64,000 nucleotides of DNA from Nostoc sp. DedSLP01 (lineage in GTDB: Bacteria; Cyanobacteriota; Cyanobacteriia; Cyanobacteriales; Nostocaceae): contig JAVRCJ020000005.1 in the NCBI GenBank assembly GCA_034530875.2, positions 128,001-192,000 on the forward strand, read 5' to 3'. The notes under the pieces are model-generated. The model had not been told where the DNA came from and did not search any database. It saw only the letters and a list, made by a program, of their open reading frames with translations. The position numbers were made by a program, and so were the translations under genes. Shown here in pieces: positions 2,999 to 57,874 of the stretch (positions are counted from its first letter, which is position 1; each line of letters opens with the position of its first letter).

Positions 2999-4109
2999 TT
3001 ATTTGCTGACCGCAGTGGTTTGATTTTGTTGTATGGAGGCTTTGAGAAACAAATCGATTTCACCGTCCAAAACGTCTGTCACAGCAGTAGTTTCAAGTTT
3101 GGTACACAGATCCTTTACTTTTTTATAAGGATGTAAAACATATTCTCTAATGAGCTTTTTGGATAAAGATTTTATTTGCCAGGGTTGAATTTCGTTAACT
3201 TGCTGGACACCTTGAGCTAGTGCGATCGCCAACAGTTTACTCTTGAGAATAGCTAAACCTTTCTCTTTGCTTTCTAGCTGACGCCGCTCTTGGTTGCAAA
3301 ATACACTAATCCCAGTAGGAATGTGCAACACTCGCACCCATGTTTCTGGACGGTTGACACTACCTTGTGGGCGTGGCACAGTAATTTCCAAATCTTTTTC
3401 TGGAATCTCAAACTCCACAGACTTATCCAGAATTGGGCTAACTTCTACAGTAGCTTGGTAAGTATATCTCCTGCCATTGCCACGAACAGGAGAAATCCGC
3501 ACTATTTTTGTATGAGTTCCTTGTTCCGATTTTAGTCAGCCATAGGCATAACGCCCTGTAATTTCTAGGGCATAACTAATGGTATCTTTATCCCTATCAT
3601 TAATATCTAGAAAACATACCTGATGTAAGTGACTTAACCCCCACAAATAATACATTCGTAATAACATAGATGACCAATTTTGGGTTTCTATGTCACTAAC
3701 TTTAGCAGTAATAGTTACTAATGCTCCCTTTGAATTGTAGGGATTAGACAATAACTGCTTTATTTCTGGTGTTTCGATTTCTTGCTGGAGTTGAGCTAAG
3801 TTAATTTGAGTCTCTTGCAGTAATTGCTCGTCAACTAATGATTCCAAAAGTTCTAGAGCAGCCTTGATATCTTTTAAGATAGAGAGCGATCGCTGATATT
3901 GTTCCTGCCTTCTAGATATAAGATATTTGATTTTCTCAGACGTCTGATGAGCAGTAGCTAGATTTTCCCAAAAAGCCGTTTTAGCGATTAGCTGATTTAG
4001 GTAGTGAATTATTCCAGTAAAATATCGCAGGTCAAAGACAGTCCTCTGTTTTGCCCAAGATATTCGACAACCTTTCTACTTCTATTTTGAAATTTAACAG
4101 TTCGAGCAT
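2999..4109 (-). pseudogene. RF2 paralogue (PCRF/RF-1 domains) lacking GGQ, with its own +1 frameshift site and one in-frame UGA; pseudogene or recoded gene
   Basis: GGAG RBS, ATG 4109, MLELLNFKIEVERLSNILGKTEDCL, CTT-TGA-C (4037-4031). The +1 frame is open to TGA 3538-3536 and the same frame continues LKSEQGTHTKIVRISPV to 2999; colinear with prfB throughout. Confidence 0.85.
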
Positions 4110-4163
4110 AGTTTTGCTCCCTTAAATCTGAACTTATGTAGACATTTTACTGGTAAACAGATG

Positions 4164-4201
4164 AAAAAAACCGTGGTTGAATTTTTAGCAACCACGGTTT
4201 T
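4164..4201 (-). terminator. Intrinsic terminator after the YccA gene
   Basis: 13-bp inverted repeat AAAACCGTGGTTG/CAACCACGGTTTT with a T-run on the minus strand. Confidence 0.75.
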
Positions 4202-4242: not shown

Positions 4243-4971
4243 TTAATCGCGGCCATTAAGGGCAATTAGCAACCGCAAAATAAAGATGAATAGGTTGATG
4301 TAAGTCAGGTACATCGATAAAGCAGCAGGCAAATATTGATCGTTACTGTAAGTGCGCGGCAAGATATAAAAATCAACAACTGAAGCGCCAACAAACAGAA
4401 ACACGCCCAAACCTGAGATAGCGATTTCTAACCAAGATGGTGTATAAACACCAAATAAGCTAAATGCAAATTGCGTCAGGCAGACAACCACCAAGGCAAT
4501 GATACCGAGATTGATGGTTTTCGTCAAAGCCATGCCATCTTGTTCGGAAAGATTTGAACCAATTTGACGGGCTGCTATGAAGGTGACGCCACAACCAAGG
4601 GCAGCTAAACCAATGCCTTGAATGCCAACGCCTTGAGTTCTCAAGGCGAGGAACACCAAACCACTGAGAGTGTATCCAGATAAAAGGCTGTAGGTTGCTA
4701 GCAGGGGTAATGCCAAACCCTTGTTACCTTTTTCAGCAACATTTTGGGCAACAAAGAACAGAATCAACTCCAAAATCACCGCACCAATGAAGGTAGGAAA
4801 GAATATTCCGGGATTAGTACGGATAATTCCCAAACCTCCGTATGTTCCCAATGCAGTTATTACCAGCCCGCCACCGACGTAGGGGAGGGCGTTAGCAATC
4901 ACATTGGGGCCGACGAGTGCGTGAGATTTCGCCTCACGGATAGCTTCACGAAAATTGCTGGTATTGCTCAT
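4243..4971 (-). CDS. Bax inhibitor-1/YccA family membrane protein
   Basis: About 7 hydrophobic segments and C-terminal AALSMYLTYINLFIFILRLL signature. Confidence 0.88.
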   Translation of the reverse strand: MSNTSNFREAIREAKSHALVGPNVIANALPYVGGGLVITALGTYGGLGIIRTNPGIFFPTFIGAVILELILFFVAQNVAEKGNKGLALPLLATYSLLSGYTLSGLVFLALRTQGVGIQGIGLAALGCGVTFIAARQIGSNLSEQDGMALTKTINLGIIALVVVCLTQFAFSLFGVYTPSWLEIAISGLGVFLFVGASVVDFYILPRTYSNDQYLPAALSMYLTYINLFIFILRLLIALNGRD

Positions 4972-6138: not shown

Positions 6139-7050
6139 ATGACTTCCCCGGAAACAAAGACTAATCTTATGCCTTGGCAATGGGCTTTGATTGGTTCTGG
6201 TTCTACGGTGATACTTGCACTTGCAGGTTTAGGACTCTGGAACTTAGTTGCATCAAAATCTCCTAGCAATTCTTCTACCTCGGGTGCTTCAAATACCAAT
6301 TTAGAAAATATTACTATTAAACGCTTAGTCGGTCAGTGGCAGCAAAAAGATTCAACTAGGCTCATTTTTACTCCTGAAGGAAAGCTATTTGTTATACCCT
6401 CTAATTCCAACGAGGCTATTGAATCGCGCTATCAAGTAAATGATGCGACTCAACCAAATCAATTAACTATATTAACTCTTGGTAATCAGATTTCGCGAAC
6501 AGTAATTTTTGATTTTATATCAGATAATCAGTTACGAATTGATAAAAGTGCATCTGCAAACTCTAGAGAATTCAGCTCGAATACACAATTGTTTCAGAAA
6601 GTATCTGATGTGACGTCACTTCCTTTAGGGATTGCACTCGTAGGCGAGGAAGCGCTACTAAAGCAAGCCAACAAAGCGAAAGAATCAGAGGCAAAACAAT
6701 ATGTCGGTGCGATGAATCGCGCACAACAAGCGTTCTTTTTGGAAAATAATCAGTTCGGCTCAGACCTTGATAAGTTGGGATTAGGCATCAAATCCAATAC
6801 GGAAAACTATACTTAGAGTGTCGTTACAATTGATGATAAGCATGTTGTCCAGAATGTAGGATTAGCAAAAACAGAAGGTCTTAAAAGTTATACAGGTATA
6901 GTTTTTATAAAATCTGTTGGGACGGAGACAACTACTTTTGCTAAACTCTGTAAAAGTATTGAGCCAACTCGGAAAATACCACCACAAGTACAGTTATCAA
7001 AAGATGATATACAATGTCCGGCTGGCTATGTTGATTTGAGCCACAACTAA
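6139..7050 (+). pseudogene. Membrane-anchored protein with C-terminal type IV pilin-like G/H domain, interrupted by in-frame TAG at 6814-6816
   Basis: ANKAKESEAKQYVGAMNRAQQAFFLE...ENYT* then the same frame continues SVVTIDD...GLKSYTGIVF...LCKS...CPAGY to TAA 7050. Confidence 0.8.
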
Positions 7051-27684: not shown

Positions 27685-30600
27685 TTACTTTTTAAGTAAT
27701 TCTACAATCGTTGCGATTAAATCTTCTGGTTCCACAGGCTTGGAAATATGCCTTTGAAATCCTGCTTTGATTGCCTGGTCTTCATTAATGTCGCCAGCAT
27801 AGGCAGTCAAAGCGATCGCTTTTACATTCCCTCCCTGTGCTGGCGGCAGATTTCTCACCTGTTGCATCAGCATATAACCATCAATTTGGGGCATTCCAAT
27901 GTCGCTCAACAATACATCTGGTTTGAAGTGTGCTAAAGTTTTTAATGCTTCAGTGGCAGAATCCACTTGTACCACAAAAGCGCCTTCCTGCTCTAATACA
28001 AACGCCACGAACTCACGACTATCAGCATCATCGTCCACCACTAACACTTTGATGCCACTTAAGTCTAATACTTCCTCGATTTGCTTACCATCGCCATCGA
28101 CTTGCCCTTGAGTCAGCATTAGCGGTAACCCGACTATAAAAGTTGCTCCTAATCCTTCCCCTAAACTCTGGGCGCAGACAGTGCCACCATGTAACTCAAC
28201 TAAGCGGCGCACAATTGCCAGCCCTAATCCCAAACCGCCAAATTTTCTAGTAGTCGTACTATCAGCTTGACGAAAATAATCAAATACGAATGGGAGAAAC
28301 TGGGGTGAAATACCTTGACCGTTATCGTTGACTGTAATTTGAGCTACAGAGTTACAGCGTTCTAGCCTGATTTCTACTTGCCCTCCTGAAGGCGTAAATT
28401 TAATGGCATTTGCCAGCAAATTCCAGACAATTTGTTGTAAGCGGCTAGCGTCTCCCGCTACTTGCCCCATATCTGGCTGGAGTATAGTCTGTATTGTAAT
28501 TAACTTAGCCTCTGCTGCCAGTCGTACTGTTTCCATCGCGTTAGCAATTATCGATGCTAAATTTACAGGACTGTTATTCAGATTCAGCTTGCCTTGGAGA
28601 ATGCGCGACACATCCAATAAATCCTCGATTAATTGCGCTTGTAACTTGGCATTGCGCTCGATAGTTTTTAAACCTTCAGTCGTTTTTGCTTGGTCTAATT
28701 TTTTTGATTGCAGTAATCTCGACCATCCCAAAATTGGGTTGAGGGGTGTCCGCAACTCATGGGATAGCACTGCTAGAAATTGATCTTTGATGCGGTTTGC
28801 CTGTTCTGCCTCGGCTCTGGCTTGGCGTTCTGTTTCATATAATTGAGCGCGAACAATTGCCTGAGCGCATTGACGACTCAACGCTAAGACAAATTCGCGG
28901 TCATCCTGACTCAATGGCTGAAATTCTTTAAAAGCTAGGGACAAACCCCCGATCGCTTTGCCCTGAGTTACCAGAGGTATTGACATCCACGAGCTAAAAT
29001 CATAAGCTCTGTAGCCTTGCTCTAAATGAGGATAGCGGCGAACTCTATCTGCCAAGGTTTCTATCCACACTGGTTCTCCAGCGCGGATTGCATCTGCTAG
29101 CGGTACGGGACTATCAATGGGAAATCGCCGCCAACTTTCTAGCGAACCGGTATGATAACCAATGGCTTTGACAATCTCTAGTTCTGTTCTATCTTCACTG
29201 ACCAAAACTACTAAGGCAGAAGCCGCTTCTAATGCAGCCATACTTTGTTCGGCAATTACCTCTGCAACTTGTGATGCAGTCAGGGATTCAGAAAGGGCAG
29301 CTGTAACAGTTTGCAGGCGAGTAGTGCGGTCTGCTGCTTTTTCTGCGGCTTGTCTGGCTTCCTGTGCTGCTTGGTAAAGACGAGCATTATCAATGGCGAT
29401 CGCAGCTCGTTGAGCTAAATCTTCAGCCAAGGCTAAATCCATCATGCTGTAATAACGATTAGACTCGGCAAACACAAAGGAAATAGTTCCTAATACCCGT
29501 TCCCGCGCGATCAAAGGAGCGATAAGACATGACTTTAAGCCTAAATCGCGTAACAGTTGCAAATATTCCAAATCTTGAATGGCATCTCTCAACTGCTCGT
29601 CAGTAATTTCCAGAGCAACTTCCATTTGCCCAGTTTGCATCACCGCAGAGACTCCATAGCCATCATCCAAATGTCTGGGGTAGCGTTGAGCAATTTCCCA
29701 CCCTAGTTTCACCTTTTCAGGGTCAGAATGAGCAACAGCTACGCGGCTGATAGTGCCATCTTCATTTAGCAAATCAATGCTACACCAGTCACCAAAATAA
29801 GGGACAGCTAAATTAGCGATGCTTTTGAGGGTTTGTTCGTAGTCCAAGGAAGATGCCAAGGTAGCGCTGACTTCAGCCAGAAAAGCTGACTGCTGCTGTG
29901 CTGCTTGAGCTGCGGCACGAGCTACCTGTTCTCGCACGAGTTGGACTCGTTTTTCCTCGGCTTGTTGGCGTAAGCGAAGCTCCTCGAAGACATTGGTGAT
30001 ATCGTGCATCACGACAACAGCACCTTGTTTGTTACCATTGGCATCTACAATTGCTTGCCCGTTAGCACTGAGGATGCGCGCTACTCCTTGCTTTGGCACG
30101 ATCGCCATTTCTAAATTTTTCACCTGCTCTCCTTGTAATGCCCGAAACAAGGGAATATCGGCTGTGTTCATTGGCGTCTTGCCATCTGGCAAATACAAAT
30201 CGTACTGTTTTGCCCATTCTTCTGGCAAAAGTGGTTCTTCGGGTAGACCGTGAAATAATCTTGCTGCTTGGTTAAATAGCTTTAATCGTCCCTCGGCATC
30301 GCAAGCGACAATTCCGGCTTGCACGTTATCTAACAGAACATTGAGAAAATTTTGTTCTTTTCGCAGCGTTGTTTCTAACTCTTTTTGTTCTGTAATATCT
30401 AAAAAATAGGCTAATACGCCGCTGGCAATTGGAATCAGCCGCACCGCAACAGAGCAAGCCAATGTTGGATAAAACTCCTCAAACTCCACGGTCGCTTGTT
30501 GGCTAATTGCTTGATGATATTGTTGAGATAACTCAGTTTTAGTACCTGGGGGAAATACCTCCCATAATGGTTTACCAAGCAGATTGCCTCGGTTTGTTCC

Positions 30601-30807
30601 CAAAAGCTGTTCTATTTTTTTGTTGACAAAAGTTACATAGCCTGTATTATTTGTCTCGATAGAGGCTTCTGCTATGTTGTCTAAAATGGCTGCTAAACGT
30701 TCTTCTGGGGATTGAGTGCCTGTAACCAAGTGCGGGAAACCTCCAGCAAGTTCTTCCTCTGAGCTAATTTGTTTTAGGCGATCGCTTTTGGGATAAATTT
30801 TTTTCAT
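27685..30807 (-). CDS. Hybrid histidine kinase HK1 (PAS-PAS-GAF-GAF-HisKA-HATPase-REC)
   Basis: LSHELRTPL, NLLANAIKFT, GGLGLGLAIV and LLSDIGMP. Confidence 0.95.
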   Translation of the reverse strand: MKKIYPKSDRLKQISSEEELAGGFPHLVTGTQSPEERLAAILDNIAEASIETNNTGYVTFVNKKIEQLLGTNRGNLLGKPLWEVFPPGTKTELSQQYHQAISQQATVEFEEFYPTLACSVAVRLIPIASGVLAYFLDITEQKELETTLRKEQNFLNVLLDNVQAGIVACDAEGRLKLFNQAARLFHGLPEEPLLPEEWAKQYDLYLPDGKTPMNTADIPLFRALQGEQVKNLEMAIVPKQGVARILSANGQAIVDANGNKQGAVVVMHDITNVFEELRLRQQAEEKRVQLVREQVARAAAQAAQQQSAFLAEVSATLASSLDYEQTLKSIANLAVPYFGDWCSIDLLNEDGTISRVAVAHSDPEKVKLGWEIAQRYPRHLDDGYGVSAVMQTGQMEVALEITDEQLRDAIQDLEYLQLLRDLGLKSCLIAPLIARERVLGTISFVFAESNRYYSMMDLALAEDLAQRAAIAIDNARLYQAAQEARQAAEKAADRTTRLQTVTAALSESLTASQVAEVIAEQSMAALEAASALVVLVSEDRTELEIVKAIGYHTGSLESWRRFPIDSPVPLADAIRAGEPVWIETLADRVRRYPHLEQGYRAYDFSSWMSIPLVTQGKAIGGLSLAFKEFQPLSQDDREFVLALSRQCAQAIVRAQLYETERQARAEAEQANRIKDQFLAVLSHELRTPLNPILGWSRLLQSKKLDQAKTTEGLKTIERNAKLQAQLIEDLLDVSRILQGKLNLNNSPVNLASIIANAMETVRLAAEAKLITIQTILQPDMGQVAGDASRLQQIVWNLLANAIKFTPSGGQVEIRLERCNSVAQITVNDNGQGISPQFLPFVFDYFRQADSTTTRKFGGLGLGLAIVRRLVELHGGTVCAQSLGEGLGATFIVGLPLMLTQGQVDGDGKQIEEVLDLSGIKVLVVDDDADSREFVAFVLEQEGAFVVQVDSATEALKTLAHFKPDVLLSDIGMPQIDGYMLMQQVRNLPPAQGGNVKAIALTAYAGDINEDQAIKAGFQRHISKPVEPEDLIATIVELLKK

Positions 30808-33789
30808 TTACTTGCTAACTAATTCTAAAATGGCTGCGATTAATTCCTCTGGTTCTACAGGTTTAGCAATATGTTTGCCAAATCCGGCAGCTATGGCAAG
30901 TTTTTGATTAATTTCTCCAGCATAAGCAGTCAAAGCGATCGCTTTGATATTTCCTCCCCGTTCTGGAGGCAGATTTCTTATCTGCTGCATCAACATATAG
31001 CCATCCATATCAGGCATTCCCACATCGCTGAGTAAAATGTCTGGTGTCGATTGTATTAATAGTTTTAGCGCTTCAGATGCCGATGCGGCTAAAATTACCT
31101 TTGCACCAGCTTGCTCTAACAGAAACCTGATATAGTCGCGGGTATCTGCATCATCATCTACCATGAGAATTTGCATATCCGCCAGGGATAAAGCCGCAGA
31201 CACATCTGATGCAGCATCAAAATTGAGTTCGTTGTCTGCTAAGGCTCTTTTGAGTAGCGGTATGCTGACTGTGAAAGTGGCTCCCTGTCCTTCGCCTAAA
31301 CTATGTGCCGTCACCATACCACCGTGTAATTCTGTGAGATGGCGGACAATTGCCAACCCTAACCCCAATCCACCGAATTTTCTCGTTGTGGCGGCATCTG
31401 CCTGACGAAAATAGTCAAATACGAATGGTAAAAAGTCCGGATTGATACCTCTACCTGTATCGGTGATGATAATTTGAGCTTGAGTACCAACACGCTGCAA
31501 ACGCACTTCTACAGACCCTCCGACATCTGTAAACTTCACTGCATTCGATAACAAATTCCAGAATATTTGCTGTAAACGTGCCGTATCTCCTGATACTTGA
31601 AATTGATAATTTTGAGATTTTGCAGCCAGTCCCAGCGATTGAGAAGTTTCGCCGATGGAGTTGAGATTACTTAATTGTTCGGTATAAAGATTTGCCGATA
31701 CTAAATCTGATATTGAAAATTGCAAATTGATAGACTTGGCTTGGGCAGCCAGGCGCACCGTCTCGATTGCGGCGGCGATGGTAGTTTCTAAATTAACTGG
31801 GGCAATGTTGAGACTGAGCTTTCCTTGGAGAATACGGGATACATCGAGTAAATCTCCAATTAACTGAGTTTGCAATTGGGCATTGCGTTCGATGGTTTCT
31901 AGGGCGTAAGCTGTTTTTTGGGCATCCAATTTGGAATTGCGGAGCAGTTTTGCCCAGCCGAGAATGGGGTTGAGGGGCGTCCGCAATTCATGGGATAAGA
32001 CCGCCAAAAATTCATCTTTGATGCGGTTTGCGGCTTCTGCTTGTTCGCGTGCCGCTTGTTCTCGTAACAGCAATTGTTCTCGTTCGGCTTCTGCTTTTCT
32101 GCGTTCGCTAATGTCAGTATGAGTTCCCAACATCCGCAGGGGTTGCCCGTTATTATCCCACGAGACAATCTTGCCCACCGAGAGAATCCATTTCCAATCT
32201 CCAGCTTTCGTGCGCTGCCTAAACTCGACTCGGTACTCCTCAAGTTTCCCCGCAGCGTAATCTTCAAACACCTGAGAAACTAGTGCTACATCATCGGGAT
32301 GCAGGCGATCGCGCCACTTGGCATTAGTTTCCTGAAATTCATCCGCTTCGTAACCCAGCATCCACATATACTCTGGAGTCACAATTGCATCACCAGTTTG
32401 CATATTCAGGTCATAAAGTCCCTGATTTGCTGCTGCTAAAGCTAAACGCAGACGTTCTTCGCTATCTCGCAGGGCTGCCTGTGCTTGCTGGCGTTGAGTA
32501 ATGTCCTGAAGAATCAGTAAAATTCCGTTGACTCTGCCGCAGTCGTCATAAACGGGAGCCGCTGAAATATTGAGAAATACATTTGAACCATCGCGCCTGC
32601 AACGATAGGTTTCTACACTAGAGAAAACTTCTCCTCTAATCACAGCCTCTCGTATTTGTTGGCATTCTTCGAGCTTTTCTTCTGGAACAATGGACAATTG
32701 TTGACCTAAAATTTCTGCCTCACTCCAGCCAAATAATTCTTCTGCGGCTGCATTCCATAATTTCACCTTCAGATTTAATTCAATAACAACAATTGCCAGT
32801 GGCGAAGCTTGAATCAGGGTACTCAAGGTTTGTAGGGTTTGTTGGAGTTCTTGTTGGACTTCTTTATATTCGGTAACGTCCATATTCACGCCAATCAAAC
32901 GATTTGGCTGACTTCCGCCATCAAAAATTTTGGCCTTGGCAGCCAACCAGCGAATTTTGCCATTAGGAAGGATGATTCGCCATTCAGTGTCGAAGTCAAC
33001 TCCTTCGTTAACAGTTCTTTGGGCCGCCAGATCTGCCGCAGGGCGATCGTCTGGGTGCAAACGTTTTAACCAATGCTCGTAGCTGCCCTCAAAACTTCCT
33101 GGTGTCAGCCCAAATAAGGCTTCCATTTCTTCTGTCCAAATCAATTCTCCGGTTTGGATATTCCATTCACAAGTGCCGATTTTGCCGACTTGTTGTGCCA
33201 AAACTAAGCGTTCGCGACTCACCCGCAGAGCAATTTCCACCCGCTGTCGCTCATCAATTTCCTGCTGTAATTGCTGGTTAACTTGCATCAGTTCGGCAGT
33301 TCTGGACTCGACGCGCTGCTCTAGTTCTTCTTGCAGGCGTCGGAGTTGGTTTTCAACTTGCAAGCGTTCTTCAATTTGGGCGTGTAATGCTTTGTTTGCT
33401 TCCCTTAATTCCAACGGACTAGGCAAGGCTAGCGCTTGAGGAACAAGCGGTATGAGTTCGATCGCTGTAAATAAGGAAACGATCGCAGTTGCGGCTTTAA
33501 TCACCCCAGATAGCCAATAGGTAGGATGCCACAGCGTCCAGATTTCAGCAATGTGGGTCGTACCGCAGAAGATAATAAAAGCGCCAAATAATAAAAATAT
33601 CCAAGAGAAAGGTAAATCTTGCCGCCGACGAACAAAATAAAACAAAGTCAAAGGAATCGAATAATAAGCCAGCGCAATGATGGCATCAGAAATTATATGC
33701 AGCCAAACTAACCCTGGGTTCCAGAGGTAGCAGTGACCATGAGGAATAAATGAGCCTGCGCTAAATAAATTAACTACAAAGTCTTGCAT
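30808..33789 (-). CDS. Hybrid histidine kinase HK2 with ETR1-like ethylene-binding N-terminus, 3 PAS, HisKA-HATPase-REC
   Basis: SDAIIALAYYSIP...FGAFIIFCGTTH...KAATAIVS TM domain plus kinase and REC motifs. ATG 33789 preferred over the ORF-track start, which lies inside a repeat. Confidence 0.92.
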   Translation of the reverse strand: MQDFVVNLFSAGSFIPHGHCYLWNPGLVWLHIISDAIIALAYYSIPLTLFYFVRRRQDLPFSWIFLLFGAFIIFCGTTHIAEIWTLWHPTYWLSGVIKAATAIVSLFTAIELIPLVPQALALPSPLELREANKALHAQIEERLQVENQLRRLQEELEQRVESRTAELMQVNQQLQQEIDERQRVEIALRVSRERLVLAQQVGKIGTCEWNIQTGELIWTEEMEALFGLTPGSFEGSYEHWLKRLHPDDRPAADLAAQRTVNEGVDFDTEWRIILPNGKIRWLAAKAKIFDGGSQPNRLIGVNMDVTEYKEVQQELQQTLQTLSTLIQASPLAIVVIELNLKVKLWNAAAEELFGWSEAEILGQQLSIVPEEKLEECQQIREAVIRGEVFSSVETYRCRRDGSNVFLNISAAPVYDDCGRVNGILLILQDITQRQQAQAALRDSEERLRLALAAANQGLYDLNMQTGDAIVTPEYMWMLGYEADEFQETNAKWRDRLHPDDVALVSQVFEDYAAGKLEEYRVEFRQRTKAGDWKWILSVGKIVSWDNNGQPLRMLGTHTDISERRKAEAEREQLLLREQAAREQAEAANRIKDEFLAVLSHELRTPLNPILGWAKLLRNSKLDAQKTAYALETIERNAQLQTQLIGDLLDVSRILQGKLSLNIAPVNLETTIAAAIETVRLAAQAKSINLQFSISDLVSANLYTEQLSNLNSIGETSQSLGLAAKSQNYQFQVSGDTARLQQIFWNLLSNAVKFTDVGGSVEVRLQRVGTQAQIIITDTGRGINPDFLPFVFDYFRQADAATTRKFGGLGLGLAIVRHLTELHGGMVTAHSLGEGQGATFTVSIPLLKRALADNELNFDAASDVSAALSLADMQILMVDDDADTRDYIRFLLEQAGAKVILAASASEALKLLIQSTPDILLSDVGMPDMDGYMLMQQIRNLPPERGGNIKAIALTAYAGEINQKLAIAAGFGKHIAKPVEPEELIAAILELVSK

Positions 33790-34435
33790 ACCACTGAAAA
33801 CTAGGCTGATAGAAAAAATTAAAGAATAACAGTCCGAGTTATACCAATTCAAAATTCAAAATTTAAAATTCAAAATTAATAAAACTAGATATTATACCAA
33901 GTTGACAAAGACAGTATGTTTGGCAAGCAGACTAATACCATTTCACTTTAATGATACGCATAGGCAAGCAGAGGAGCAGAGGAAGTAATTATTATCAATA
34001 ATTTCGTGAATTGCTATAAAGTCTTGGAAACAAACTTTATAAATATTTTCACAGTGTATATTAATTACGAATTACGAATTAGTATCGCAACGGTTTGACT
34101 ATATGTATCGGAAGCATTCTTTTTTCAAATTGGTATTAGATATTAAATATACTGTTGGTAGAAATTATCAATGAAGTCAGGAGGCAGCCCCGATGAAACA
34201 AGTTTCACAAGCCTTAAATGAAAGTGTCTTTCTCCCCCTGCTCTTTTTCTAGCTAGTAGGCAGTCCCGATGAAACAAGTTTCACCGCCATGCATGAAAAA
34301 GGAATATCCCCTACACCCCACACCCCGCACCCTACACCCTTTTTGAAGGCAGGAAGAAAACTAACCCCTAACTCCTGCTGATACTGTCAGAACAAGGTGA
34401 AACACCTCACCAAATTAAAATTTGGTGGCTCTTAT

Positions 34436-37400
34436 TCAGGAGGGGTCTGAATCCCCTTCTGAATAAAAACCTCCTGCCTTCTGCCTTCTGCCTCTTGCCT
34501 CCTTCAACAGTTCTGAAATGGCATTGATTAATACTTCCGGTTCGACAGGTTTGGCAATATGTTTGTGAAAGCCGACTTTGAGGGCTTGCTGTTGGTCATA
34601 TTCTCCAGCATAGGCCGAAAGAGCGATCGCTGGGATCTTTGCGCCTTGTTGTGGCGATCGGCTGCGAATTTGCTGCATCAGGGTATAGCCATCCATATCT
34701 GGCATTCCCAGGTCGCTAATCAAAATATGTGGCGCTTGGCGCTCAAACAGCATCAACGCCTCAGCAGCAGAAGCCGCAATGGTAACTTGCGCTCCCTGTT
34801 GTTCGAGAATGAACCGGACTAAATCGCGCATATCTGCTTCGTCATCCACGACTAAAATTTGTAGCTGACTGAAGTCAATCAATTGAGTAGTCGCAGAAAT
34901 TTCTGGCTCTGGGGCTGTGGCAACAACCATCAAAGGTAATTTCACGGTGAATGTGGCTCCTTGTCCTTCACCTTGGCTCTGTGCGTGAATTGTGCCGCCA
35001 TGCAGTTCGGTCAAATGGCGAACAATCGCTAACCCTAAGCCCAGCCCACCAAACTTGCGAGTAATTTTGCTGTCTTCTTGGCGAAAGTAGTCAAAAACGA
35101 ATGGTAAAAAGTCTGGAGTGATACCAATACCTGTATCCTTGACTTGAATTTGAGCATAGTTATTAACTTGCTCTAAGCGAATTTCTACCTTGCCGCTATT
35201 CGGTGTAAATTTAATGGCATTGGAAAGTAAATTCCAGACAATTTGTTGCAGTCTTGCTGAATCTCCCGAGATTTTTGCGTTATTCAAGGCGATCGCAGTT
35301 TCGATTTGAATCTGTTTTGCCTCTGCTGCTAACTGTACCGTCTCTAGAGCCGATTCAATAATCTGAACTGGATTGACGGGATAAATCTTCAAAGCTATTT
35401 TGCCGCGTAAAATCCGAGAGACATCAAGCAAATCGTCTATGAGTTGGGTTTGCAGCTTGGCATTGCGTTCGATTGTCTCTAGGGCGCGTTGTCTTGAGGG
35501 TGCATCTAACTTACCCGACTGGAGTAGTTTTGCCCAGCCCAAAATCGGGTTGAGAGGCGATCGCAATTCATGAGATAGTACCGCTAGAAACTCATCTTTA
35601 ATTCTGTTGGCGGCTTCTGCTTGTTCGCGGGCGGCTTGTTCCCTGGCTAGGAGTTGTTCTCGTTCGGCTTCTGCCTGTTTGCGTTGGGTGATGTCGCTAA
35701 AGGAGATTGCTACGCCATCTTCTAACTTGACTGCCATATTGCGGAACCAGCTAACGATTCCGTCTGCGTTGTAAAATAATTCAATATCGTGGGCAACTCC
35801 TGTTTCTACAACTTTTACATAGCGTTCAAATAATTCACTTTTGGTTTTATGACCGGGAAGTACTTGCAGCAACCGTTGACCGATCGAGTCTTGAACGGGA
35901 CGCTGAATAATCTCGGCTGCTTTGGGATTGAGGTAAATGCAGACAAAATCAACGATCGCTCCGGTTTCATCTCGGACACTTTCCAAAATGGTAAATGCAT
36001 CTAGGGATAACTCTTGACTGATGCGGAAGCGTTCTTTACTCCGTCGCAGCGCCTCTTGGGTGCGTCTGCGATCGCTAATGTCAATCAAGTTTGCCACCGC
36101 CCCGACAATTTGTCCGTCTTTGAGCAAAGGTGCGGCACTAGCCAGGATGTCATAGTAGCTACCATCGGCGCGTACCATGCGCGACTCCAAGGCGTTATTT
36201 ACTTCTCCCCTTAAAGCTCTCGATATTGCATAATTTTCTAAGGGAATGACGCTTCCCTCGACATCGTAGGCAGTTCCCCAGCTGGAAACATCCAGGTCAA
36301 GGGCGGTGCTATTTGGGTCTTGCTGCGCTAGTCGCCTCGCTTGGGGATTGGCAAATGTGACTTTTCCGGAAGCATCGCACACCAGAATGGCATCAGCAGC
36401 ATTGTTCAAGATGATTTCTAACAAGTGCCGTTGTTCGCTTAGTTCTGCTTCGGCTTGCTTGCGTTCGGTAATATCAAAAAACAAACCATCCCAAGCTTCT
36501 CCGTATTCGGTTTGTTCTGGGCGGGAACGTCCCTGAATCCATTTGAGTTTTCCCGATGGTGTAATAATTCGCCCTTCCCATTGCCAAACAAGCGAATTTT
36601 TCACAGCGTTGGCCACTGAATATTCAAAAGACGGCAAGTCATCAGGATGAATCAAGCTCAAGAAAGAATTGGCATCTTGCAAAATCGTTTCTGGTTCCAA
36701 TTCAGCCAGTTCGCGGGAACCAGAACTGACATAAGTAAAGGCAGGCGTACCATTGCCATCGCCAAAGGGAGCATAACGATAGACGATTCCTGGCATATTG
36801 CTAACCAGCACTTGAAACCTGGCTTCGCTTTGGCGCAGTGCTGATTCTGCTTGCTTGCGTTCGTGAATGTCGGTATCCATACCAATCCACTCGCGCACTG
36901 AACCGTCGGCATTGAATAAAGGAACCGCACGGGCAATAATATGGCGATACTCACCGCTAGGAGCGTGCCACAGCCGCCCCTCAACTTCATAAAATGCCCG
37001 TTTTGTCAAGGAATGTTCCCAGCGTGCTTTTAATTCTTCCCGATCTTGGGGATGAATCATTTCTAGCCAACCCCATCCAGCGTATTGTTCCCAACTTTGC
37101 CCGGTGTAAGCTTCCCACGCAGGCTGAGAATTAATAAAGGCACCATTGGCGTCAGTTGTCCAGACAAGTGCTGCCGTTGTTAACACCAGCAAACGATACC
37201 GTTCCTCGCTGGTTCGCAGTGCTGTTTCTACTTGCTTGCGTTCGCTGATATCCCAAGCAATACCCAGACAACCGGAATTTCCTTCGACATCGTGGGTTAA
37301 ATTCGCCCAAATCTCTAAATCCACCATCCGCCCATCTTTAGCTTGATGCTGGACTTCAAATCCGTTGAGCGATCGCCCGCTTAATACTGTTTCCAGGCTG

Positions 37401-39091
37401 GCAAGAAATTCTTTTTGTCGATGCGGCACCGTTGGCATAAATCGCCCGATGGCTTCTTGGGCACTCCAGCCAAAGATTCCCTCGGCGGCACGATTCCATA
37501 ACCTGACAATTCCTTGCGGATCGAAAAAAGCAATGGCGACGGGACACACATCAATCAGAGTTTGTAGCGTTTGATTGGTGCGCCTCAGTGTTTCCTCTGT
37601 ACGTTTGCGCTCGGTAATATCTAAAAATGCAGCTACCGAGCCTCTTACGGCTCCCTGCTTATTTAGTAGGGGTTTGGCGTAACCAAACAAATTAAATACA
37701 CTGCCATCGCCCCGGACAATATCCACTTCAGTACCTTTAATTTCTGTTTTGTGAATGGCGGCGTAGCGCAGGGGAAATTCATTCAGGGTGAGTTCCCGAT
37801 CGCCCTGGAAGAGTTTGTAGGCTGGAGGCGGTGCATTCGCTGGAGTGTAGGAAACATTGGCATCAACAGCCAGACCTAAAATTGCAGCAAACGCTGGGTT
37901 AGATTTAACGTGTTTAAATTCTGGGTCTTGGCTGAGTAGCACGCCAATGGGAATCACCTCAAACAGCGTTTGCATGTCTTGATTTAGGGAGGCGATCGCC
38001 TGTTCTCTGGCTTCGAGGGCAGCTGCCATCTCATTAAAGGCTCTCCCCAGTTGCCCTAGTTCTCCCGCTTCCCCAGCAAGTTCGCTGCGGGCGGTGAAAT
38101 CGCCGCTTTGGATTTTCTGGGTCGTCTGTACCAGAGACTTCACCTTGCGAGTCAAGAAGACATCCCCCCCGACCCAGGCAACCGTTAGCGCCAAAACAGT
38201 AACACATCCCAGCACCATCAGGTTTTGTCCCAGAAGCCGGTCGGCTTGGGTAAAAACAACCAGCTTGGGAACGCCAATTCTGATATGTACATCTCGATCG
38301 CTGGCGTTAGTGCCTAAGGTTGTAAAAGCGTAGAATCGCTGGATGCCATCCAAACTCATGGCTTCGGCGGTACCTTCTATTTGGGATAACACCACTTTGG
38401 TCATGGGAGCATTGGGAACGGATTTTCCCATCCACTTTTGCGAATCTGGGTAGCGTATCAGAATAGTTCCCTGGCGATCGGTTACTGTAACTGTCGATCC
38501 CTGTGGCAACTTCATCTCGCCTGCCAGCCGATCGAACCAAGCCAAATCCAATGCTGCCACTACAACTGCCTGGACTTGCCCCGACCGATTCAATATCGGA
38601 TAAGCAAAATTCAGCGTTGGTTTGCCCGTTATCCGACCGATTTGAAATTCCCCAATGGCAAAGTCATGAGTCTCCTTAGCCAAGCGGAAGTAAGGGCGAT
38701 CGCTGACATTTATCGGCTTTTTCGCTACGGGAGCGCTACAAATTAAGTTACCTGCCCCATCAACCACCCCGAAACCTGCGTAGAAGTGGTATTGTTTGAG
38801 CAGATTTACTAGCAGGCGATCGCACTCATCAACATTTCTTTGGCGAATATCAGGCATTTGAGCCAAAGCAATTAGCAATTGCCGTGCCGCTTCAGTGGTT
38901 TGTCGCTGATTGGCGGCTGCCACTTTCACCAAGCGCAGCAGGTTCTCCTGTGCTTCTATGGCTGCACTCTGTCGTTGAGCCGTGGCAGTGTAAAGGATCG
39001 ATCCCAATGCCGGAATCACTGCCAGGAAGAAGAGCAACATCAGGCGAGTCCGGAGGCTGCATAAGCTGGGGTGACGGAACCAGGAGTGCAT
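34436..39091 (-). CDS. Hybrid histidine kinase HK3 (TM-Cache-TM-HAMP, multiple PAS, HisKA-HATPase-REC)
   Basis: NVSDRPYF...GRITGKP Cache motif, GELGQLGRAFNEM HAMP, LSHELRSPL. Confidence 0.93.
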   Translation of the reverse strand: MHSWFRHPSLCSLRTRLMLLFFLAVIPALGSILYTATAQRQSAAIEAQENLLRLVKVAAANQRQTTEAARQLLIALAQMPDIRQRNVDECDRLLVNLLKQYHFYAGFGVVDGAGNLICSAPVAKKPINVSDRPYFRLAKETHDFAIGEFQIGRITGKPTLNFAYPILNRSGQVQAVVVAALDLAWFDRLAGEMKLPQGSTVTVTDRQGTILIRYPDSQKWMGKSVPNAPMTKVVLSQIEGTAEAMSLDGIQRFYAFTTLGTNASDRDVHIRIGVPKLVVFTQADRLLGQNLMVLGCVTVLALTVAWVGGDVFLTRKVKSLVQTTQKIQSGDFTARSELAGEAGELGQLGRAFNEMAAALEAREQAIASLNQDMQTLFEVIPIGVLLSQDPEFKHVKSNPAFAAILGLAVDANVSYTPANAPPPAYKLFQGDRELTLNEFPLRYAAIHKTEIKGTEVDIVRGDGSVFNLFGYAKPLLNKQGAVRGSVAAFLDITERKRTEETLRRTNQTLQTLIDVCPVAIAFFDPQGIVRLWNRAAEGIFGWSAQEAIGRFMPTVPHRQKEFLASLETVLSGRSLNGFEVQHQAKDGRMVDLEIWANLTHDVEGNSGCLGIAWDISERKQVETALRTSEERYRLLVLTTAALVWTTDANGAFINSQPAWEAYTGQSWEQYAGWGWLEMIHPQDREELKARWEHSLTKRAFYEVEGRLWHAPSGEYRHIIARAVPLFNADGSVREWIGMDTDIHERKQAESALRQSEARFQVLVSNMPGIVYRYAPFGDGNGTPAFTYVSSGSRELAELEPETILQDANSFLSLIHPDDLPSFEYSVANAVKNSLVWQWEGRIITPSGKLKWIQGRSRPEQTEYGEAWDGLFFDITERKQAEAELSEQRHLLEIILNNAADAILVCDASGKVTFANPQARRLAQQDPNSTALDLDVSSWGTAYDVEGSVIPLENYAISRALRGEVNNALESRMVRADGSYYDILASAAPLLKDGQIVGAVANLIDISDRRRTQEALRRSKERFRISQELSLDAFTILESVRDETGAIVDFVCIYLNPKAAEIIQRPVQDSIGQRLLQVLPGHKTKSELFERYVKVVETGVAHDIELFYNADGIVSWFRNMAVKLEDGVAISFSDITQRKQAEAEREQLLAREQAAREQAEAANRIKDEFLAVLSHELRSPLNPILGWAKLLQSGKLDAPSRQRALETIERNAKLQTQLIDDLLDVSRILRGKIALKIYPVNPVQIIESALETVQLAAEAKQIQIETAIALNNAKISGDSARLQQIVWNLLSNAIKFTPNSGKVEIRLEQVNNYAQIQVKDTGIGITPDFLPFVFDYFRQEDSKITRKFGGLGLGLAIVRHLTELHGGTIHAQSQGEGQGATFTVKLPLMVVATAPEPEISATTQLIDFSQLQILVVDDEADMRDLVRFILEQQGAQVTIAASAAEALMLFERQAPHILISDLGMPDMDGYTLMQQIRSRSPQQGAKIPAIALSAYAGEYDQQQALKVGFHKHIAKPVEPEVLINAISELLKEARGRRQKAGGFYSEGDSDPS

Positions 39092-42000
39092 TACGGTTTC
39101 GTTTGACCTCCAACTTGTTGAACTAAGTCTGTTATCGCTTTGACTAAAACTTCTGGCTCTACGGGTTTGGGTACGTGCCGTTGGAAGCCTGCCAACATCG
39201 CTTGTTGGTAGTCGATTTCTCCGGCATAAGCAGTCAGGGCAATGGCTTTGATTTGTCCCCCTTGTGCTGGCGCTAAGGCTCTGACTTGCCGCATTAGCAT
39301 ATAACCGTCCATCTGGGGCATCCCAATATCGCTGACTAGCACATCTGACTGGGACTGAGTTAAAGTGGCGATCGCTTCTACGGCTGAGGCTACGGCAGTT
39401 ACCTCTGCTTGGTAGTGTTTCAGCATGAAGGCGAGGAACTCTCGCGTATCGGTATCATCATCGACTACCAAAACTTTAATGCCCTGCAAGCTCAAAGATG
39501 GCTGAGATTGTCGATTGTCTGAGTTTATTGGGGACGGATTGAGCAAACTCGGCAGTCTGACGATAAAAGTTGCCCCTTGCCCAACGCCACGACTTTGTGC
39601 TTGGACTGTGCCGCCATGCAGTTCTACTAAGTGACGGACAATGGCCAATCCTAACCCCAGTCCGCCAAATTTGCGAGTTGTCGCGCCATCTTCTTGGCGG
39701 AAGTAGTCAAAGACGAATGGCAGAAAGTCTGGGTCAATTCCCCTACCTGTATCGCTGATGCTAATCTGGGCAAAACCACCAACTCGTTCTAAGCGAATGT
39801 CTACTCGTCCCCCGACATCGGTGAACTTAACGGCATTGGAAAGGAGATTCCAAATTACTTGTTGTAGTCGGTTAGGATCGCCGGATACCTGAAACTTGGG
39901 ATTTGGCGAATTACCGTAGGTAAAGGTTAGCGAATCCGACGCACCAGAAGGGCTGTCAAGACCAGTGGTATATGGAGGAAACCCCCAAAGCTGGGCTGTC
40001 TCCTGTGCGACCGACTCTGGCTGACGAATTTTTGATTTTGGTTTTTCGGCTGGTTCTTGAGAGTCTCGATCGAGAAAGGCAGAGGGCAGAGGGCAGGAGG
40101 CAGAAGGAATACTGCCTTCTGTACTCTGCTGCGGCCAAGGGGAGCAAGGGTTTAAGACCCCCATTGAACTCTCGTTCAGTGGCTCTCCTTCAGGAGGGGT
40201 TGAATCTCCTTGAAGCTTACTCCTTCTGCCCTCTGCCGACGCTCGCGGACTCGCTAACGCTGCGCTATCCTGCCTTCTGCCTTCTTCAATTTCCAGTCCC
40301 AAATCTAAAATCGGAAATCCTAAGTTGATGGACTTAGCTCGAGCTGCTAATCTTACCGTTTCCATTGCTGCTTGAATCGTCCTGACTAAATCGACGCGGG
40401 AAACCTTGAGGCTGAGTTTACCTCGGAGAATCCGAGAGACATCGAGCAAGTCTTCAATCAGTTCCGATTGCAACTTGGCATTGCGTTCGATGACATCTAA
40501 GGCTTGAGCCGTCTTAGCTTCGTCAAGCTTGGCTGTTTTCAAAAGCTGCGACCAGCCTAAGATGGGGTTGAGGGGCGATCGCAATTCGTGTGACAGAACG
40601 GCTAAAAACTCATCTTTAATGCGGTTGGCTTGTTGCAATTGTTCGGCTTGTTGCTGGATGGAACTCAGCAATTCTGCCCGTTCTAGGGCGATGGCTATTT
40701 GGTCGCAGGTCGATTGTAATAGGTTAGTTTCTTCTAAAGTAAAACGCTCTCTGATTAAACTGCAAAATGACAGCGACCCCAACAACCGCCCGCGGACGAT
40801 TAATGGTTGACCGGCATAAGCGGTAATTTTCATGGAGTTGAGCATTTTTGCGTGCGGTTCGCGGGCAATTTGCGCTGCATCGAGAACAATTTGCCGCTGC
40901 TGTTGTGCCACCAATCCACACATGTACTGACCAAAGTCAACCCATTCGATTGAACGAGCTACATCATCAGCAAGCCCGCCATAGTTTGTCAGATGCAGCA
41001 TCAAGCGGTTGTCTTTTTCCTCAACCATGTAATTGTAGTAGCAATGCAACTCCAGCTGCTCTGAAAGTTTGCTGAATAAATTTGTCATCAACTGCATGGG
41101 GTGTGCGGCAGCGAGTAAATCGCGGGTCGTCTCATAAAGCAGATGCAAGCGTTGGTCTGCTTGCCGTTTTGCAGTTTTGTCTTGCAAAATTTTCACAAAC
41201 CCATGTATGTCACCTGCTTCATTTTGCAACGGCATCATTAAACCACTCGCCCAAAATCGCGTTCCGTCTTGACGCACATGCCAACGTTCGTTGTCGGCGC
41301 GTTCTTGAGTCAAGGCTGTTTGCATTTCCCATTCGGCGCGTCCTTGCTCGTTATCTTCTGGGGTGAAAATAATGCGAACGTTGCGGCCTAAAGCTTCTGT
41401 CTCGGTGTAGCCCAAGAGCTTTTGAGCGCCAAAATTCCAACTGGCAATTGTGCCGTTGAGGTCGAGGGTGAAAATGGCATAATCTTTGGCGCTTTCCACC
41501 ATCAGCCGGAAACGGGATTCACTCTCGGCGATCGCTATCCGCGCTAATACTTGGGCGGAAATGTCCCGGAAGTAGCAAACTACACCGTAGCGTCCCTCTG
41601 GCAGGGGAATGCGGTTGATTTGCCACTCATAATATTCGATGGCGTTGCGATCGCGCCGTTGCTTGATTTGCTCTGGGACAAAATACGGCTCCCCTGTTTC
41701 TAGGGTGTGGCGAAAACGCTGGACGACTTCATCTGCATACTCTTGCGGCCACAGAATGTGGATGACCTCAGCGAAGTCTCGACCGATTAAACCCGGAATA
41801 TCTGCAAAAGCTGGCAATGCTGTAGGATTCACCTGTCGGATGCGAAAGTCGCCATCAATCGAGTAGACGCCAAGGGGGGCTGCATTAAAGAGCGTTTGCA
41901 ACTGTGCCTGACTCGATTGCAAAGCTTCCTGTGCCTGCTGGCGCTCGGTGATATCTTGAAACAAAAGTACCATCGTATTGTTGCTATCTAATAGCGCAGC

Positions 42001-51962: not shown

Positions 51963-52568
51963 ATGGAACGTCTAACAGAAGCTCAACAAGAACTTTACGA
52001 ATGGTTGGTAGAATATATCCGAACGCATCAGCATTCGCCTTCAATTAGGCAAATGATGCAAGCGATGAATTTGAAGTCACCGGCACCAATTCAAAGTCGT
52101 TTAGAACATTTACGTACAAAAGGATATATAGAATGGACTGGAGGCCAAGCAAGAACGATTAGAATTTTGCGTTCTGTTAAACAAGGCATACCAATTTTGG
52201 GGACGATCGCTGCTGGTGGTTTAATAGAACCATTTACTGATGCTGTAGATCATTTAGACTTTTCTAATTTCTCGTTACCTCCCCAAACCTACGCTTTGCG
52301 GGTAGCTGGCGATAGCATGATTGAAGATTTAATTGCTGATGGCGATGTGGTATTCTTGCGTCCAGTACCAGAACCAAATCAGTTGAAAAATGGTACTATC
52401 GTCGCCGCGAGAGTTGATGGATTCGGTACAACATTAAAACGTTTTTATCGTCAAGGCGATCGCGTTACTCTCAAACCAGCAAATTCTAAGTACAATCCCA
52501 TTGAAGTCAGCGCCATGCAAGTGCAGGTGCAGGGTTCTTTGATTGGTGTTTGGCGGGGTTACAACTGA
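51963..52568 (+). CDS. lexA: LexA repressor
   Basis: wHTH (SPSIRQM), IAAG cleavage site, GDSM and TLKR catalytic residues. Confidence 0.97.
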   Translation: MERLTEAQQELYEWLVEYIRTHQHSPSIRQMMQAMNLKSPAPIQSRLEHLRTKGYIEWTGGQARTIRILRSVKQGIPILGTIAAGGLIEPFTDAVDHLDFSNFSLPPQTYALRVAGDSMIEDLIADGDVVFLRPVPEPNQLKNGTIVAARVDGFGTTLKRFYRQGDRVTLKPANSKYNPIEVSAMQVQVQGSLIGVWRGYN

Positions 52569-54178: not shown

Positions 54179-54507
54179 TAATGAATCAGATTGTATTTGT
54201 ATTTTTTTGTAAAAATTTTTCTGGGTTTGTAGAAACAAGCATTAAGTATGAAATAATGAAAATATGAATTAAATTATAATGGGATATAAGCAAAATTTTT
54301 AGAGCAGCTTACATCCCATTATAATATGGTTTATTAAGACTAATTTTATCAGAAAAATATTAAAGGATAAAGCATTTTTTCAAAAAAATTCAGATTTAAA
54401 TATTATAGTTTTTCAAAATTTAAAGATAATGCTAACCGTAGCTTTACAGTGACAAATGCACCAGTAGAGAGGGTTAAAATATAGAAAAAATTATTTTAGA
54501 ATCAAAG

Positions 54508-54681
54508 ATGCCACAAGAGGCGAATATCGATGATGTGCAGGAGCCAATAACCAACGCTCCACCAGAAGTACGACAAATTATTGAGCGAGTGTGGAAGCTG
54601 GAAAAAAGTAGGCTCGATCGCAAAAGTAAAGGGCATATTAACGATGATATTCTAGATATTATCAAGGAAGCAGTGCAATGA
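54508..54681 (+). CDS. 57-aa small protein translationally coupled to the ABC ATPase (not in ORF track)
   Basis: MPQEANIDDVQEPITNAPPEVRQIIERVWKLEKSRLDRKSKGHINDDILDIIKEAVQ*; ATGA overlap at 54678-54681. Confidence 0.75.
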   Translation: MPQEANIDDVQEPITNAPPEVRQIIERVWKLEKSRLDRKSKGHINDDILDIIKEAVQ

Positions 54682-56750: not shown

Positions 56751-56812
56751 ATTAATTGCATACAATTATATTTAATATTATTTGTCGCTTTGTGTGGGCG
56801 ATCGCCATCATC

Positions 56813-57421: not shown

Positions 57422-57532
57422 GTGAGGTGTTTTAAGAGAAGATGTTGCATTTAACTAAAAAATTAGAATAACAGTTGACTAAAAGTGAGAAAATAGAAGC
57501 ATAAATTAGCTGGAATTTTCAGGATTTAGATT

Positions 57533-57874
57533 ATGGGAATTAAGGAATTATTACTACCATTTCGGGAAGAGATATTAAAAATTGCCGCTAAATATGGCGC
57601 ATATAACGTGCGGGTGTTTGGTTCAGTTGCTAGAGGAGAAGCAAGATCTGATAGTGATGTAGATTTTTTGGTAGAACTTGAACCGGGACGTAATTTGTTA
57701 GACCGTATTGCTTTAATGCAAGATTTGGAGGAGTTGCTAAACCGTAAAGTTGATGTAGCCAAGCCTAATAATTTACATGAATTAATTAGGGAAAAAGTGT
57801 TAAGTGAAGCTGTAACACTACGAGAGAATAAAAGCGTTATTTACTGGATATTGCAGAATGTATTGAGAGGATAG
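57533..57874 (+). CDS. MNT minimal nucleotidyltransferase antitoxin, C-terminally extended by stop loss
   Basis: [16 protein letters not shown] (GSX10DXD); the family-typical end EAVTL is followed by CGA at 57821. Confidence 0.88.

Follow-up and report, generated by a model that had tools for sequence, protein, structure and literature searches.

The 64,000-nucleotide stretch of the Nostoc sp. DedSLP01 genome analyzed here (contig JAVRCJ020000005.1, positions 128,001 to 192,000; in the following, the window) contains, upstream of the release factor 2 (RF2) gene prfB, a second and divergent RF2 gene, which has lost the catalytic GGQ motif and carries the RF2-type frameshift cassette. On the minus strand, the order is yccA (4971-4243), a terminator-like hairpin, the paralogue (4109-2999), prfB (2849-1727), DUF3285, ybeY and dgkA. 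A ribosome-binding site AAGGGAG (4117-4123) precedes the ATG start at 4109, the first frame extends over 25 codons up to a TGA (4032-4109), and the cassette at 4031-4046 reads GAGGAC-TGT-CTT-TGA-C, with a Shine-Dalgarno (SD)-like element and the shift site CTT-TGA-C at 4037-4031; the prfB cassette for comparison is CAGGAC-TAT-CTT-TGA-C (2789-2774). Via the +1 shift the gene comprises 369 codons, and the +1 frame (codons 26-369 and the TAA at 3001-2999; 2999-4033) encodes the RF2 fold with PCRF and RF-1 domains according to Pfam. The reading frame is free of frame-breaking indels, and 172 of 365 residues (47%) are identical to prfB, which encodes a canonical RF2 of 373 amino acids with GGQ and SPF (1727-2849). 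An earlier note on this DNA had described the GGQ-less paralogue 5' of prfB, its ribosome-binding site, its 25-codon first frame and a cassette matching that of prfB, all of which we found, and had joined two open reading frame fragments into one gene of about 369 codons. It overlooked that an in-frame TGA at codon 191 (GGC TGA CTA, 3536-3538), an inferred readthrough site, lies between these two fragments, so that the +1 frame is interrupted.

The motif changes listed in that note are all present in the window copy: the catalytic loop is shortened to VPRPQGSVN (3353-3379) and the GGQ is gone, the stop-codon discriminator SPF has become SPV (3485-3493), and the tip of helix alpha5, TAKVSDIETQNW (3674-3709), is altered compared with prfB and reads KVSD (motif KVSDIETQNW). 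Furthermore, the switch-loop region is replaced by EIQPWQIKSLSKKLI (3149-3193); the family signature in this region is AxxQGVxxIxxIxP. The roles of the GGQ, SPF, alpha5 and switch-loop elements in release factors have been described (PMC3472500; PMC5378476), and the switch-loop Trp corresponds to W319 of E. coli (PMC5378476). Our homologue set comprised 92 loci after removal of duplicates; codon models used 73 of these, which are full-length, run in a single frame and include prfB in the locus. Of the 73, two retain GGQ (as do 4 of 87 protein clusters) and 17 the GxGG of alpha5, while the WG of the switch loop is absent throughout. SPF is retained in 31, with SPV in 25 and other variants in 17, and its loss is not family-wide.

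The frameshift cassette is conserved: a protein search with a query lacking the cassette returned 42 loci, and all 42 carry CTT-stop-C at the same place (40 TGA, one TAA and one TAG), a conservation that exceeds chance. The autoregulatory +1 frameshift of RF2 has been described (PMC5009743), and the prfB shift has been reported in Synechocystis (cited in PMC12873609). Two loci, L053 and L071, combine a CTT-TAG-C cassette with TGG at codon 191, and such a cassette would therefore sense RF1, not RF2; CTT-TAA-C occurs in seven loci, five of which are broken. Stimulatory RNA structures behind the cassette stop or behind TGA-191 did not exceed shuffled controls (z -0.5 to -1.5). The prfB gene itself has a 7-bp hairpin right 5' of its shift site (2786-2802) that the paralogue does not have, and a conserved structure like this pre-shift hairpin has been described (PMC12873609).

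The predicted product retains all four domains of RF2. AlphaFold2 (136-row alignment, TGA read as W) gave a predicted local distance difference test score (pLDDT) of 84.8 and a predicted template modeling (TM) score of 0.73; this model replaced a poor one (pLDDT 54) from a shallow alignment of seven sequences. The best match in the PDB is the compact RF2 1gqe (TM 0.61), and all listed matches are bacterial or organellar RF1 or RF2. Compact or pre-accommodated RF2 structures match the model better (TM 0.58-0.61) than open ones do (about 0.43). Against TIGR00020 the paralogue scores 259.7 bits with its first 25 residues left out, below the cut-off of 370, and prfB, treated likewise, reaches 487.4 bits and lies above it. 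The score for TIGR03072 (PrfH) is 34 bits at a cut-off of 167, and PADLOC found no match for three family members.

The second internal stop is unlikely to be a sign of decay. Codon 191 is TGA in 28 of the 73 full-length loci, TAC in 23, TGC in six, TGG in five and TGT in four, with seven rarer codons; over 91 loci it is TGG in six and never TAA or TAG. On a local tree the carriers fall into one group together with the TGG alleles and four others, and E. coli RF2 has a Trp at this position. Behind the stop, the ratio of non-synonymous to synonymous substitution rates (dN/dS) is 0.358 in 25 carriers and 0.352 in 41 non-carriers, and codons 192-235 alone give 0.356 across all carriers. For the clade of eight that surrounds the window copy, in which all members have TGA, the value is 0.41, with twice the log-likelihood difference to neutrality (2ΔL) at 35.7, and in the five closest carriers it is 0.39 (2ΔL 21.9). 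The branch leading to the window copy alone has a dN/dS of 0.30 behind TGA-191 (20.5 synonymous changes per 110 sites and 20.5 non-synonymous changes per 364 sites). Later stops are absent from the 28 carriers, although neutral evolution would have produced about 18 in the clade of eight by itself. Because the TGA is common to so many loci, selection continues behind it and no further stop follows, we do not regard it as decay. UGA-191 is probably read by a near-cognate tRNA, most likely Trp-tRNA, and the window copy would then need both a frameshift and a readthrough event, each favored by low RF2 activity. In E. coli, UGA readthrough is governed by the competition of Trp-tRNA and RF2, as reported in PMC10570021, where RF2 overexpression alone barely lowered readthrough in most of the strains tested. 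The tetramer TGAC is the rarest of the 12 stop tetramers in the genome of the window (69 of 3427).

Matches to the paralogue are frequent in the genus and scattered beyond it. Counting the genome of the window, a full-length second RF2 copy was found by protein search in 13 of 151 genomes of the family, and a second RF2 match in 45 of 61 genomes of the genus, five of the 45 being partial. A DNA pattern was matched 91 times among species representatives. Eighty of these matches were listed, 78 under the names Nostoc, Aulosira, Tolypothrix, Calothrix, Komarekiella or Amazonocrinis and two as metagenome bins with different labels. In a search of 5.8 billion proteins, 87 clusters ranked ahead of ordinary RF2 and are called, where named, "PCRF domain-containing protein", "peptide chain release factor 2" or hypothetical. 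GGQ is also missing from nine of 149 additional cluster representatives. Overlapping samples of 151, 401 and 401 genomes added four members outside the family (G273, G324, G930 and G375), all without GGQ and all with CTT-TGA-C or CTT-TAA-C. The order yccA-paralogue-prfB is common to Nostocaceae, G273, G375 and G930, the paralogue of G324 is unlinked to prfB, and that of G069 lies about 5 kb away from it. In a careful tree of 41 rows, made after the removal of 23 of 64 rows that were long, partial or redundant, the 16 rows without GGQ group in a single clade with a support of 100/99, nested in cyanobacterial RF2 and spanning several families, with the caveat, raised by the program, that two long branches meet within it; an earlier quick tree, whose search was unfinished, gave a support of 88. 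The common gene order and the C-terminal signature back this clade independently of the tree, and the sequences taken together indicate that the family stems from one duplication of prfB. Extra RF2 matches in G450, G628, G774, G875 and G920 have a GGQ and resemble contaminants or ordinary duplicates; an extra match in G242 is an RF1. A literature search in open-access sources found no description of this GGQ-less RF2 paralogue family, which is apparently undescribed so far. Two observations from this survey stand apart: locus L174 (G546:C54:222-1196) of a deep-branching cyanobacterium holds a second divergent RF2 with GGQ and SPF that lies outside the clade and reads CTT-TAG-G at the shift position, and in G273 yccA and the paralogue are separated by two small genes of 120 amino acids each (L158:4182-4936).

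The paralogue is under purifying selection, with a dN/dS of 0.37 compared with 0.057 for prfB in 39 loci, about seven times as high; a further estimate for prfB is 0.055. The lowest value (0.157) belongs to the segment around codon 191, followed by helix alpha7, the linker and the first frame (0.21-0.25; the first frame alone 0.25 in 66 homologues), so that the core segments as a whole range from 0.16 to 0.25. The ribosome-contact loops, i.e., switch region, alpha5 and GGQ loop, are among the fastest segments (0.44-0.54), and two segments of domain 1 are equally fast (0.45 and 0.55). The old clade, the overall dN/dS and the invariable cassette bear out the proposal of long selection on a GGQ-less RF2 behind an RF2-sensing cassette. 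The alleles are mosaic, segments of 50-60% nucleotide identity alternating with segments near 90%, and the state of codon 191 changes 14 times on the prfB tree versus 6-7 times on paralogue trees. A minority of alleles (L058 and L138; proteins P0023, P0033, P0067 and P0073) has the full-length loop with GGQ together with SPF. Recent gene conversion by prfB is not supported as their source, with only 65-70% nucleotide identity in the segment, and an old GGQ-bearing allele, which might be active, therefore co-segregates with the dead ones.

The upstream regions of homologues carry a further signal that the earlier note missed, a putative operator of the TrcR type, which is strong in 16 of 73 promoters and degenerate in many of the rest. 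In the window, a yccA/Bax-inhibitor-1 family gene (4243-4971; Pfam Bax1-I, E 7.6e-31) lies outside and upstream of the paralogue, as in 67 of 74 homologue loci and in three of the four distant members, and is followed by a hairpin with a U-tract (4164-4200) that was recognized by sequence and is kept in the upstream alignment. It is likely an intrinsic terminator dividing yccA from the paralogue; a consensus terminator scan did not report it. Just 3' of this terminator the homologues have a common -10-like hexamer, in the window TAAAAT (4149-4144, promoter region 4132-4151), which aligns with TACAAT/TAGAAT. In many homologues the hexamer sits inside TGTAATACA-ATA-TGTAGTAA(G/T), tandem repeats located 45-46 nt 5' of the ATG. 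In Anabaena PCC 7120, the rtcB promoter contains TGTAATACA-AA-TGTAATATA and the trn operon TGTAATACA-TTA-TGTAGTATA (PMC8421152), the latter much like TGTAATACA-ATA-TGTAGTAAG of a paralogue homologue; the arrangement of tandem 9-nt repeats with a spacing of 2-3 nt over the -10 element is the same. Two such repeats over the -10 element and the start site confer induction under translational stress. TrcR is the repressor acting at them, with a regulon that includes ribosome repair and assembly genes (PMC10272220). No release-factor gene is among the 23 strongly derepressed genes tabulated there.

Seven promoters (L005, L006, L008, L013, L083, L121 and L141) score 19.8-20.5 on an operator matrix, above all 4929 background windows, which were taken from upstream regions of this genome. 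Among 34 million genome positions just three attain 19.8, and one of these is the same as a trn repeat pair. By rank, 16 of 73 paralogue promoters fall into the top 0.5% and 34 into the top 5%, whereas no prfB promoter out of 89 ranks that high. Five of 151 family genomes contain the exact motif, always 5' of the paralogue. A TrcR-like gene was found in the genome of the window by the exact published promoter motif, with homologues in five other genomes tested. Judged by the alignment, the promoter of the window copy is a decayed remnant of the tandem repeat. Operator loss and TGA-191 are not associated (TGA in 5 of 16 strong-operator and 21 of 57 other loci). Further candidate TrcR sites in this genome lie before an ABC transporter gene (G000:C9:27109), upstream of rtcB (C64:8150) and on C8 (minus strand, 250591), where the pair is identical to the trn operon repeats. 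The lexA upstream region (window 51963-52568; G000:C5:179962) scores 11.7 on the same matrix, probably due to overlap with its own operator.

From these data we tentatively propose that the paralogue is a catalytically dead RF2 that cells produce when termination is under stress and that acts as an RF2-shaped decoy. In a first step, slow RF2 would let ribosomes shift +1 at codon 25, as in prfB, and in a second step UGA-191 would be read through, most likely by Trp-tRNA, which competes with RF2; full-length output would therefore be doubly dependent on low RF2 activity. We consider these two steps together likely. In a third step, lineages that keep the operator would add TrcR repression until translational stress occurs, a gating that is moderately likely for the 16 strong-operator loci, and the window copy would have lost this layer. 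The product is predicted to be unable to release peptides without GGQ and therefore would be no backup RF2. Away from the decoding site it would, in the last step, act as decoy and spare the real RF2 by absorbing RF2 binders or inactivators such as a toxin, a peptide antibiotic, a phage protein or a protease. This is the weakest of the four steps. We prefer it to a shield of the A site because the contact loops drift, the core is kept, and the alleles are shuffled and often lost. Among the three roles suggested in the earlier note, the decoy fits best, and we infer it from these patterns. The broader statement that up to three gates, i.e., TrcR repression, RF2-sensing frameshift and RF2-sensing readthrough, control a dead RF2 that is either decoy or A-site shield is put forward with slightly more reserve than the decoy reading.

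Several points weigh against this proposal. An RF2-binding antagonist was not identified, and in no segment does dN/dS exceed 1, which a decoy engaged in an arms race might be expected to show; positive selection is unsupported. Some of the alleles, given the retention of SPF or GGQ, could still bind the A site. Extra stops, frameshifts or truncations break 22 of the 92 loci, one perhaps only by a contig end, and the count of later stops followed the removal of 19 of the 92 loci (frameshifted, truncated or without prfB in the locus), among them three carriers with downstream breaks (L079, L092 and L096). With regard to the operator, the matrix was built from 11 published repeats and scored against a single genome, and since the operator-bearing promoters are related, they amount to few independent observations. 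The window promoter scores -5.0, equalled or beaten by 75% of the background windows, most copies of the main Nostoc group have a weak operator or none, and the four distant members score at most 2.8, i.e., have no operator, though their genomes encode a TrcR-like protein. Finally, the RNA data consist of four runs of one study and concern the gene of a relative at a word share of 0.06. Contigs from these runs cover the paralogue of the relative at depths like those of prfB, but contigs of more than 100 kb are present, which points to DNA in the RNA libraries, and the data thus say nothing on transcription.

Among the alternatives, an A-site shield deserves most attention, even though we think it rather doubtful. 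Under the same gating, a compact and dead RF2 could bind in the A site with no codon being read and park or shield stalled ribosomes, or recruit RF3 via its intact domain 1. This would be in line with the retention of four domains, the basic switch-loop replacement, helical in the model, the ribosome repair and assembly genes in the TrcR regulon (PMC10272220) and the example of Balon, a GGQ-less release-factor homologue that acts as A-site hibernation factor (PMC10901736). Balon likewise lacks the codon-reading motif and is linked to stress (PMC10901736), but it has the aeRF1/Pelota fold, binds with EF-Tu and involves no recoding, whereas the paralogue is predicted to have an unrelated fold, for which the listed matches are RF1 and RF2. 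The model also resembles compact more than open RF2. AlphaFold, however, commonly yields compact RF2, and for this reason the conformation is weak evidence. What speaks against a shield is that no new invariant surface motif appears on the decoding-site face and that constraint is particularly low in the segments of alpha5, the GGQ loop and the switch region. The A-site modulator raised in the earlier note may exist, but conservation is lacking in all elements that contact the decoding site.

It is unlikely that the gene is a weakly selected relic in slow loss, with cassette and TGA-191 keeping a useless or mildly harmful protein low. The broken loci and partial genus matches, the rarity of full-length copies in the family and outside it, the sevenfold dN/dS and the state of the window copy, whose operator is gone and whose charge is far less acidic (net +1 versus a family mean of -10), would fit such a relic. 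Against it, dN/dS is significantly below 1 on branches that are all younger than TGA-191, including that of the window copy, a useless gene would have gathered stops where none is seen, and the clade extends over several families. At the level of sequence we regard the relic as largely refuted. The test that the earlier note had set for a decaying duplicate has been passed only in part, given the 22 broken loci and the uninformative RNA data.

An RNA binder like plant PrfB3, which would stabilize specific transcripts while the cassette is merely inherited wiring, seems improbable to us. In PrfB3, SPF and GGQ are gone and the protein protects the 3' ends of petB (PMC5897788), a PrfB3 cluster was third in a language-model feature search (0.94), and the C-terminal part of the paralogue is less acidic than that of RF2 (+1.4 versus -5.1). 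But PrfB3 is derived from land-plant plastid RF2 (PMC3472500) and the paralogue clade nests in cyanobacterial RF2, the family is acidic overall (mean isoelectric point 5.6), and a fixed RNA target would be ill-suited to shuffled alleles and frequent loss and would leave the retention of the cassette unexplained. PrfB3 (mtRF2b, At3g57190) is likewise a full-length RF2 homologue without GGQ and, like the window copy, with an altered codon-reading motif. It is a land-plant nuclear gene that binds the petB 3' untranslated region, whereas the paralogue represents an independent cyanobacterial duplication with recoding signals, a separation drawn from trees that contained no PrfB3 sequence. Three long RF2s in the tree, apart from the GGQ-less clade, we take to be of the plastid type.

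A split product, in which TGA-191 terminates and re-initiation yields the C-terminal half as a second polypeptide, is very improbable. Most carriers have an AAGGA 10-14 nt behind the TGA, and codon 203 of the window copy is GTG. Only 9 of 28 carriers, however, have a start codon at this position, and at any other early position at most one carrier has one, so re-initiation was rejected for want of a conserved restart codon. In addition, codons 192-235 are under selection, and the stop would cut domain 2 within its most conserved segment. Slightly less credible still is the cis sensor suggested in the earlier note, by which upstream translation tunes prfB and the protein is irrelevant. The prfB start lies at most 1.7 kb from the paralogue start in 88 of 91 loci, but selection acts on the amino acids throughout the gene, and prfB has its own -10-like element CAGCTAAAAT (2921-2930), present in 83 of 89 paralogue-bearing loci and also in loci without the paralogue (L023, L025, L028 and L029); moreover, the G324 copy is unlinked and the G069 copy distant. 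Dedicated recoding of UGA-191 by selenocysteine or a suppressor tRNA can practically be dismissed: Cys codons, the usual mark of a selenocysteine site, occur there in 11 of 91 loci, but the 99.8% complete genome has no selA, no selenocysteine tRNA above the cut-off and no tRNA with a TCA anticodon, its tRNA-Trp is ordinary with a 5-bp stem and none with a 4-bp stem exists, and no significant structure of the selenocysteine insertion (SECIS) type follows the site (z -1.4), so that a selenoprotein was rejected.

The paralogue agrees with bacterial RF2 in its fold, the order of its domains, the first frame of 25 codons, the SD-like stimulator and the CUU-UGA-C site, but it has lost GGQ and the switch-loop Trp, its SPF and alpha5 are drifting, and it is dispensable. 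Its sensor drives a product predicted to be unable to restore termination, and the window copy has a second, in-frame UGA. As far as it is treated in PMC5009743, control of the early UGA by readthrough is not known from bacterial RF2 genes. A frameshift and a readthrough over two internal stops also occur in the class-I release factor gene of Mimivirus and Megavirus, a combination called unique to these viruses (PMC3521657); that factor is viral and of the eRF1 type, and the paralogue is bacterial, derived from RF2 and GGQ-less. PrfH-RtcB and ArfB are accessory and patchy release-factor paralogues too, tied to ribosome damage or stalling, and the relevant section of a review names only ArfB and PrfH as bacterial paralogues, both with the catalytic glutamine (PMC6514570). 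They keep this Gln and lack domain 1, whereas our paralogue has domain 1 and no GGQ, and PrfH adjoins rtcB, whereas the paralogue has yccA and prfB as neighbors and rtcB lies on another contig. Besides the paralogue and prfB, the genome encodes one RF1 and a short ArfB-like match, and no further RF2.

Functional release-factor homologues without GGQ have been found in plants (PrfB3) and among proteins of the aeRF1 fold (Balon), and a selected GGQ-less RF2 clade of bacteria would add a third case, with a regulatory logic of its own. If our proposal is true, a cellular gene needs both frameshift and readthrough, and the prfB cassette has been reused to control something other than a working RF2. 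UGA-191 would be a natural and conserved bacterial readthrough site with a built-in comparison, as TGA, TGG, TAC and TGC alleles occur in one genus. The operator would tie the family to the translational-stress response of Nostocales and indicate the conditions under which a phenotype may be expected. In databases the family appears only as "PCRF domain-containing protein" or mislabeled as RF2, and the TGA alleles appear as two fragments.

Two HIP1 sites lie in the paralogue (3222-3229 and 3886-3893). The earlier note had taken them as a mark of long residence, but two in 1.1 kb are close to the genome mean of 0.89 per kb and tell little. An in-frame insertion of 21 nt (MPTAGYAYA/MSTTGYAYA) occupies the first site in 30 of 74 homologues but is missing in the window copy, and its 14-nt core occurs 20 times in the genome of the window. 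It presumably resembles the small dispersed repeats of Nostoc; a literature search for it found nothing. Elsewhere in the window, a type IV pilin-like gene of the G/H domain type (6139-7030) may be broken, since a TAG at 6814-6816 interrupts the domain, of which Pfam positions 1-44 of 114 are covered, and the frame apparently continues past the TAG. Four consecutive, very large PAS/GAF hybrid histidine kinases of 1040, 1014, 1551 and 1879 amino acids, named by motif inspection, occupy 27685-44730, and a phosphorothioate-type cluster with genes for a PbeA-like helicase, a PbeC/DndD-like ATPase, an HNH nuclease, a DndB-like protein and DndC extends from 52697 to 63075.

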